Source: a virus (Duplodnaviria; Heunggongvirae; Uroviricota; Caudoviricetes). Taken from it: a stretch of 12,562 nucleotides of DNA. The notes beneath the pieces were generated by a model. The model searched no databases. It had not been told where the DNA came from and was given only the letters and a program-made list of their open reading frames with translations. Below are positions 10,927-11,827 of the stretch, in pieces. The position numbers were made by a program, and so were the translations under genes. The stretch lies in the IMG/VR virus record IMGVR_UViG_2531839666_000031; one strand, given 5' to 3'. The first letter of the stretch is position 1. Every line of letters starts with the position of its first letter.

Positions 10927-11136
10927 ATGCGGCCATGTATCGAAAACATACGGTGCCGACACTGCAATAAGCTACTGGCACGGGCCAGTTTCAGTTATCT
11001 GGAAGTAAAATGTCCGCGCTGTAAAACCCTCAATCAAATCACATCTCCGAGCGCCACAGAGCACCCCACATACACAAGGAAATCCTGTCGTGGGGAACAG
11101 AAAGCAAGTCACATCCCGTATCATCAGCACGCCTGA
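10927..11136 (+). CDS. com: Com-like zinc-finger translational activator of mom
   Basis: ..[41 protein letters not shown].. has the Com-type Cys4 finger (C-x2-C..C-x2-C). Overlaps the start of the downstream mom-like gene by 47 nt, as com overlaps mom in Mu. AGGAGG at 10919-10924; an alternative ATG at 10894. Confidence 0.65.
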
Positions 11137-11827
11137 ACTTATTCGCTATAACGACAATATCGTTGGTTATGGCTCCCGTGAGTTGCGGGTTGAGACAATA
11201 AGTTGCTGGCTGGCCAGACTGGTCATCGTCAATAAACATTACAGCCACCGTTTCGTAAATAACTCCTACCTTCATCTGGGCATATTTTCAGAACGGGAGC
11301 TGGTTGGCGTAATGCAATGGGGCTATGCCCTTAATCCAAACAGTGGTGCACGCGTCGTAACGGGCACGCGGAACCGTGAATATATGGAGCTTAACCGGTT
11401 ATGGCTGCATGACTGTATGCCGAGAAACTCCGAATCAAGGGCAATCAGTTACGCGCTCAAGCTAATCAGGCAGCTTTATCCGCAGGTACAGTGGGTTCAG
11501 TCGTTTGCAGATGAGCGTTGTGGCTGTCTTGGTGTCGTGTATCAGGCAAGCAATTTTGATTATGTAGGCAGCCACGAATCAACATTCTATGAACTTGATG
11601 GCGAGTGGTATCACGAGATTTGCAGGAATGCCATTAAACGAGGCGGACAGCGAGGTGAACATCTGAGGGCTAATATCGACAGAGCCAGTGTTCATAAATT
11701 CCGTCAGTTTCGTTACATCCGGTTTCTGAACAAGAGGGCCAGAAAACGCCTCAACACAAAGCTATTCAAAGTCCAGCCTTACCCAAAACCACAAACAGTT
11801 AAAACTGGTTTAAAAGAGAGTGAGTGA
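11090..11827 (+). CDS. mom: Mom-like DNA modification protein (adenine modification, anti-restriction; GNAT-like fold)
   Basis: 245-aa ORF starting at GTG 11090 inside the com-like gene; last gene before the prophage end, exactly the Mu right-end arrangement invertase-com-mom-attR. Assigned by synteny and size, not by a verified alignment. Confidence 0.6.

Follow-up and report, generated by a model that had tools for sequence, protein, structure and literature searches.

Two overlapping plus-strand genes, com and mom, lie at the prophage's right end in the window (the whole 12,562-nt stretch of viral DNA that was analysed), and host DNA begins beyond them (Table 1). Com is 69 aa long as sequenced and Mom 245 aa, and the two ORFs share the 47 nt from 11090 to 11136. 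The sequence-only reading had described a Cys4 Com-type gene that overlaps a GTG-initiated ORF of 245 aa by 47 nt, and its coordinates agree with the ORF table. From the upstream stop codon (11006-11008) to GTG 11090, the mom frame contains no ATG, GTG or TTG. The GTG start is therefore forced, and GUG 11090 is the sole possible mom start in this prophage lineage. The Shine-Dalgarno (SD) sequence of com is separated by 2 nt from ATG 10927, the start of the ORF as sequenced, and by 10 nt from ATG 10935, the canonical start.

Table 1. Features of the com-mom region and of the prophage that carries it (positions in the window).
Feature	Position	Strand	Basis or remark
Private one-base indels	94, 108, 132, 138, 1612, 7312, 10943		Prophage comparison
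Stretch homologous to the Mu gin 3' end and mom-upstream control region	10850..10891	+	Alignment to Mu
Perfect 9-bp dyad, AATCGATCG-N7-CGATCGATT	10867-10891	+	Inverted repeat
Dam sites (GATC) in the dyad	10871-10874, 10884-10887		Two sites
com Shine-Dalgarno, AGGAGG	10919..10924	+	Read from the sequence
com ORF as sequenced, 69 aa	10927..11136	+	ORF table; frame uninterrupted between ATG 10927 and its stop codon (11136)
Canonical com start ATG 10935 and A-run 10942-10945	10935..10945	+	Private +1 insertion, AAAA vs AAA
com Cys codons	10954, 10963, 11011, 11020	+	Cys4 zinc ribbon
Com operator (predicted), GAGCGCCACAGAGCACC	11049..11065	+	Match to the bipartite SELEX motif GAGNNCC(N)3GAGNNCC
Operator hairpin, gcgc[CACAGA]gcac	11051-11064	+	Hexaloop, C-G closing pair, one internal C.A mismatch
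Translation-inhibition structure (TIS)	11064..11095	+	Folding and homology to Mu
mom ORF, 245 aa	11090..11827	+	GTG start
Prophage right end	11874..11955	+	Last prophage base 11955; other prophage copies are homologous up to here
Direct repeats GTATCAAA(N)..GC, three	Starts 11874, 11909, 11931	+	Repeat search
Host yeaX, 5' part (carnitine monooxygenase reductase subunit)	11956..12562	-	Truncated by the prophage

The mom gene ends 128 nt before the prophage-host junction (11955/11956). From 11956 onward the window is 100% identical to yeaX as it occurs in complete genomes of E. coli. The only Pfam domains found in the yeaX fragment are the FAD- and NAD-binding domains of its N-terminal part. 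The placement of the module at a prophage end, made earlier from the sequence alone, is thus correct, as homology to the other prophage copies ends at 11955 and yeaX starts at the next base. By analogy with the annotated sites of phage D108, the three GTATCAAA repeats are probably transposase-binding sites of attR. The last 100 nt of the prophage also hold a 13-nt inverted repeat (11858-11870 and 11892-11904), and the terminal bases read ...GCGCTATA, unlike the Mu end, which reads ...CA. A prophage at the yeaX site was found in none of 5426 complete E. coli genomes; related prophages are inserted elsewhere, in an Ig-like adhesin gene and in the garL region. Such differing insertion sites are expected for a transposable phage.

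The 245-aa ORF had been called Mom from synteny and size, with a profile check proposed, and that check is decisive. The ORF product matches the Mom family of Pfam (PF25680) with an E-value of 4.5e-77 and 258.7 bits against a cutoff of 27.1, and the match spans the whole profile (positions 1-202 of 202). By sequence, it is therefore a full-length member of the Mom family. In alignment it is 80% identical to Mom of phage Mu, and a tblastn search against phage genomes with Mom returned Mu (79.9% identity) and D108 (78.0%) as the best matches. The crystal structure of Mu Mom (PDB-code: 8BV8, “Methylcarbamoylase mom”) is matched with an E-value of 1.3e-124, in an ungapped alignment of query residues 5-233 with residues 4-232 of chain A. 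RefSeq contains an identical protein (100%), WP_000528257.1, under the PGAP name “Mom family adenine methylcarbamoylation protein”, and the Mom of a relative, different at one residue, is annotated as “tRNA(Gly)-dependent adenine aminoacyltransferase Mom”. An NCBIfam search gave no match for Mom or for the cargo proteins upstream of com, so the PGAP name rests on no NCBIfam model in the library searched.

For Mu Mom, the residues on which activity depends have been established. Arg-111, Ser-124, Asp-149 and Arg-151 are essential or nearly so, while Trp-48, His-58, Tyr-59, Tyr-159, Trp-181 and an HTH-like insertion (approximately residues 175-209) are also important (PMC13219725). In that publication residues are counted from an ATG 10 codons upstream of the annotated GTG of Mu, which adds 10 to the numbering of the 231-aa protein, and the residue lists were adjusted accordingly. 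Between Mu Mom and the Mom of the window none of the nine residues differs; in the latter, the equivalents of Trp-48, His-58, Tyr-59, Arg-111, Ser-124, Asp-149, Arg-151, Tyr-159 and Trp-181 are Trp-40, His-50, Tyr-51, Arg-103, Ser-116, Asp-141, Arg-143, Tyr-151 and Trp-173, respectively. The HTH-like insertion is retained as well (residues 167-201 in the window) and is mostly identical to that of Mu.

The short ORF belongs to the Zn_ribbon_Com family (Pfam PF10122, E-value 6.1e-11, 42 bits vs. a cutoff of 22.9). Its cysteines Cys-10, Cys-13, Cys-29 and Cys-32 line up with the four cysteines of Mu Com, to which it is 44% identical; its identity to the PGAP-annotated Com of an O157:H7 prophage is 97%. 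A search of solved structures with this sequence returned only weak matches to eS27 zinc ribbons, and no solved Com was found by sequence.

In Mu, the start of mom is masked by an RNA structure, the TIS, whose stem includes the GUG start codon, and CC(N)2-3GAG, the sequence recognised by Com, is located in the loop of an adjacent short hairpin; the consensus obtained for Com by SELEX is the bipartite motif GAGNNCC(N)2-3GAGNNCC (PMC6483171). In the window, the operator sequence GAGCGCCACAGAGCACC matches the bipartite motif perfectly (1 match vs. 0.01 expected) and sits directly 5' of an inhibitory hairpin. The outer stem of this hairpin is formed by CCCCAC (11064-11069) and GUGGGG (11090-11095), while in the inner stem GG of the mom SD (11078-79) pairs with CC (11084-85), which means that the SD AAGGA (11076-11080) and the GUG start are both buried. 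The equivalent stem of Mu is shorter (CCCAC/GUGGG). Folded in its context (11050-11105), the structure has a minimum free energy (MFE) of -14.3 kcal/mol (z = -2.19; 3 of 200 shuffles equal), and the hairpin alone has -11.5 kcal/mol. A fold of the mRNA around the mom start had been proposed in the sequence-only reading as the place to look for a start-sequestering hairpin, and the hairpin at 11064-11095 is of this kind. The broader claim that the locus reproduces the Mu arrangement is borne out by the overlap, the GUG start, the operator motif and the start-masking hairpin, all of which are present.

The operator hairpin was compared across 13 further com loci, all from phage genomes: Mu, four Pseudomonas phages, Moraxella, Curvibacter, two Burkholderia, two Ralstonia, B3 and Escherichia phage Chuche. 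An operator-type hairpin precedes the downstream gene at all 14 loci (the window and the 13 others). In each of the 13 it consists of a 4-bp stem and a hexaloop C-N3-GA closed by C-G, and it lies 20-40 nt upstream of the start of the next gene. Three of the four stem pairs change on both sides and 96% of the cells are paired, values that are optimistic because the hairpins were chosen with a filter requiring pairing. In the window itself the operator stem contains one C.A mismatch, and C11064 is common to the operator and the TIS. The hairpin is barely stable alone (about -0.4 kcal/mol), and MFE folding of the single window sequence did not recover it, giving a 2-bp alternative pairing instead. 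For this reason, the operator assignment relies on the motif match and on the cross-locus comparison.

At several of these loci the gene under control encodes a DNA adenine methyltransferase instead of Mom, which indicates that the cassette of Com, operator and lock is modular, as has been described before (PMC3299994). Examples of such com-methyltransferase cassettes are ORF47/48 of Pseudomonas phage B3, that of Escherichia phage Chuche and, from the literature (PMC3299994), those of FluMu and Pnm1. Like the window, they feature a Com homologue, an operator hairpin and a start-masking structure before a DNA-modification gene; in contrast to the window, the controlled gene is an AdoMet-dependent adenine methyltransferase and not the acyltransferase Mom. 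The closest similarity is seen in Chuche (1304-1360), where Com is 66% identical, the operator is the same and the arms CCCCAC/GUGGGG are identical, but the gene controlled is a DNA methyltransferase. Thus, by comparison of these sequences, the Com cassette is exchanged between different DNA-modification genes.

A comparison with Mu (AF083977; com 35768-35956, mom GTG 35907-36602) supports a common organization. In both, com and mom form the last operon before the right end, downstream of gin, and overlap (by 50 nt in Mu and 47 nt in the window). Their GUG start codons are homologous, and they share the TIS arms CCC(C)AC/GUGGG(G), the operator hexaloop CC(N)3GAG, paired GATC sites 13 nt apart and a Mom that is 80% identical with all key residues kept. 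On the other hand, the upstream in-frame mom ATG of Mu, on which the 241-aa numbering is based, is absent from the window, and the Mom of the window has a 12-aa C-terminal tail in comparison to Mu. Moreover, a 3.2-kb block with a nanS-p-like esterase gene, DUF1378 and DUF826 genes and a pseudogene separates gin from com, where Mu has none.

We therefore propose, with a probability of roughly 0.9, that the region holds the com-mom late operon of a transposable, Mu-like prophage inserted in yeaX, in which DNA modification by Mom is gated by a Com-operated lock. This proposal builds on what is seen at the locus itself: both proteins belong to their families, the important Mom residues are kept, com and mom overlap, the operator and the inhibitory hairpin are present, and the module sits at the end of the prophage. 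By analogy with Mu, a dimeric, GNAT-fold Mom would flip out adenines in double-stranded phage DNA and attach the glycyl group from Gly-tRNA(Gly) at N6, where the adduct would rearrange on the base to N6-carbamoylmethyl-dA, a modification expected to block many restriction enzymes. Because Mom would be harmful to the host, its translation would be gated: the mom SD and GUG would be locked in the hairpin at 11064-11095 until Com, itself a product of this transcript, binds the small hairpin at 11051-11064, as Mu Com does, and opens the lock.

Prophages of this kind are common in Shiga-toxigenic E. coli. Among the 5426 complete E. coli genomes, 233 contain com-mom DNA, with identities of 90-99.9%. 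The prophage part of the window (1-11955) is 99.4-99.7% identical to Mu-like prophages of STEC/EHEC strains such as 2010C-3347 (NZ_CP034806) and O157:H7 F7508 (NZ_CP038357), in which Mom is 100% identical and the genes, those of the cargo block included, follow one another in the same order. The relatives differ from the window in that they are not inserted in yeaX and that the window alone carries seven one-base indels. From its description in the literature, these relatives resemble the Sakai Sp18 type; Sp18, a Mu-like prophage, encodes Mom together with its regulators where Mu has them (PMC3299994).

The copy in the window is compromised at com. In the relatives, the start codon of com is the ATG that corresponds to 10935, and the gene encodes 66 aa (MYRNIRC..., WP_001443803.1). 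In the window an extra A at 10943 turns the AAA of the other copies into AAAA. As a result ATG 10935 is out of frame and its reading frame stops after 11 codons, while ATG 10927 is in frame through the AAAA at 10942-10945; by sequence comparison, that com starts at 10927 is a chance effect of the private +1 insertion. The window hence lacks an intact canonical com coding sequence, which concerns the integrity of this copy and not the family membership of Com. The AAAA variant was found at none of the 285 sites present in 235 complete records of E. coli and in none of the 9 metagenome contigs that carry the site, all of which have the three-A form alone; when a single genome of each species was scanned for the exact patterns, neither com variant was found. 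As the sole usable ATG (10927) lies just 2 nt after the SD, Com, and hence Mom, is probably made at a low level, provided that the additional A is not a sequencing error.

The com insertion is one of exactly seven one-base indels that separate the window from the 99.7%-identical prophage of 2010C-3347. None of the seven is shared with the prophages of 99.4-99.7% identity from three complete E. coli genomes, and each disrupts an ORF that the relatives have intact, with genes for a DNA circularization protein and a baseplate protein, gin and com being affected; the mom ORF is free of them. Given these breaks, this prophage copy may be non-functional. The indels reflect either decay of the prophage or errors in the sequence, and the cluster of four within 45 nt (94-138) tips the balance towards sequence error.

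We consider it about an even chance that the seven indels are sequencing or assembly errors in a draft and that the true locus is the canonical, intact com-mom operon of STEC. The indels are all private to the window sequence and all frame-breaking, several of them are located in short homopolymer runs (TTT/TTTT, GGG/GGGG, AAA/AAAA) in addition to the clustering noted above, and the fact that the yeaX insertion is seen in no complete E. coli genome suggests that the source may be a draft. However, frameshifted defective prophages are common in O157 strains (PMC2669165), and we regard it as quite possible, although at somewhat under an even chance, that the window represents a decaying remnant, in which the com insertion is genuine, hardly any Com is produced, mom remains locked against translation and the entire prophage is defective. 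Seven ORF-breaking indels against a relative of 99.7% identity would fit this explanation, as would the absence of the com variant from the 285 genomic and 9 metagenomic copies and the state of com initiation, in which ATG 10927 follows the SD by only 2 nt and the well-spaced ATG 10935 leads to early termination. Decay is harder to reconcile with a mom ORF whose product is 100% identical to an intact RefSeq protein and with a com frame that is still open from an in-frame ATG with its Cys4 finger intact, and four indels in 45 nt look more like poor base-calling than like independent mutations.

For the operon as a proposed Mu-like, Com-gated module, the upstream control region was compared with that of Mu. 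In Mu, a C-protein site and a weak promoter lie between the GATC sites and com, and mom transcription starts about 56 nt downstream of the last GATC. The Mu GATC sites mediate control of mom transcription by Dam and OxyR, as is known from the literature of Hattman and of Kahmann. The window retains two of the three Mu sites, with the same 13-nt spacing as Mu sites 2 and 3; site 1 has no counterpart in the alignment. Control by Dam and OxyR through this GATC dyad would thus be transferred from Mu by analogy. Beyond the GATC dyad, the mom promoter and C-binding region of Mu could not be aligned to the window, and a consensus scan of 10821-10926 found no sigma-70-like promoter, although an activator-dependent promoter is not expected to match such a scan. 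The distance from the last GATC to the com ATGs is 36-44 nt in the window vs. 78 nt in Mu (about 35 nt shorter). Because this interval is shorter than that of Mu and not alignable with it, the geometry of the Mu promoter and C-protein site does not appear to be conserved in the window.

Alignment of Chuche with the window shows a similar GATC cluster with equally short spacing but no shared -10 element. In the E. coli Mu-like prophage lineage and in Chuche, the Dam-site dyad is found 36-50 nt upstream of the com start. With so little room, the com-mom promoter would have to overlap the GATC sites, and we entertain the idea, which we consider rather unlikely, that it does so and that methylation, or OxyR, acts on the promoter core. 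As a separate proposition of the same low standing, the com insertion could be authentic and could have shut off Mom in this strain. If the promoter did overlap the GATC sites, methylation or OxyR would act at the promoter core and not at an upstream operator, giving a rewired epigenetic gate in front of the same translational switch.

The chemistry of the Mom reaction has been determined for the Mu enzyme. Mom is a dimer with a GNAT fold that moves glycine from Gly-tRNA(Gly) onto adenine N6 in double-stranded DNA, in SAS motifs, after which the N6-glycyl adduct rearranges to N6-carbamoylmethyl-dA (PMC13219725). The product is also referred to as 6-NcmdA or N6-(1-acetamido)-adenine, and the term “methylcarbamoyl” is a label in the PDB and PGAP names and not the actual chemistry. 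The sequence-only reading was hence right that Mom modifies adenine, but its compound name, N6-methylcarbamoyl-adenine, has to be replaced by N6-carbamoylmethyl-dA (PMC13219725). By homology, we expect the Mom of the window to make N6-carbamoylmethyl-dA from Gly-tRNA(Gly).

The same reading had warned that the substrate chemistry of this homologue could differ; an identity of 80% and the conservation of all catalytic residues tested make this unlikely. A Mom that uses another aminoacyl-tRNA or acyl donor, or another target sequence, and so makes a different adenine modification, might be envisaged from the approximately 20% of positions that differ from Mu Mom, the two extra residues near the N-terminus and the 12-residue C-terminal extension. 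Since all residues important in Mu Mom are identical and the HTH-like insertion is kept, and the 8BV8 match covers query residues 5-233 (chain residues 4-232), we regard this as very improbable. Fainter still is the prospect that Com is a DNA-binding transcriptional regulator and not an RNA-binding translational activator, for which the automated PGAP name (“Com family DNA-binding transcriptional regulator”) is the sole support, while experiments with Mu Com demonstrated binding to a hairpin in the mom mRNA (PMC6483171) and the Com RNA motif is found at the expected place in the window and is conserved across the 14 loci.

Taken as a com-mom operon under a translational lock, the region is a standard anti-restriction module of phages, in which adenine hypermodification is controlled by Com. 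The module is already known, since RefSeq carries Mom under that name; the mechanism and structure of Mu Mom are published, and Mom homologues in Mu-like prophages of EHEC are in the literature. What the present analysis adds to the annotation is limited to the product chemistry, the mom start at GUG 11090, and the com frameshift together with six further indels, which bear on the quality or the decay of this prophage sequence. The prophage is not simply Mu, as it differs in the private com frameshift, apparently in the promoter geometry and in the nanS-p-like cargo block between gin and com.

The cargo block (7675-10324) encodes a 679-aa SASA-esterase/DUF6645 protein as well as DUF1378 and DUF826 proteins, and it is common to the related prophage copies examined. 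The stretch 7600-10420 is 78-81% identical to Stx-converting lambdoid phages, in which the counterpart gene is annotated as a 9-O-acetyl-N-acetylneuraminic acid deacetylase. The block therefore looks like a lambdoid late-region module within a Mu-like prophage. Between this block and com, on the minus strand (10363-10820), lies a divergent gene that is annotated as a frameshifted pseudogene in the relatives. In the window it consists of a 135-aa ORF and an overlapping 64-aa ORF with CxxC pairs, neither of which has a Pfam or NCBIfam match. A terminator-like hairpin with a perfect 12-bp stem (10636-10665) is found inside this divergent pseudogene.

On the other side of the cargo block, the gin-type serine invertase is split by the extra C at 7312 into two ORFs, 7014-7364 with the Resolvase N-terminal domain and 7294-7575 with the Resolvase end and HTH_7. 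In the relatives gin is one gene of 186 aa, the window equivalent of which is 7014-7575. In the tail-fibre region, a stretch of 158 nt (5516-5673) matches positions 8070-8227 of a relative in inverted orientation with 85% identity, which is consistent with an invertible host-range segment under the control of gin.
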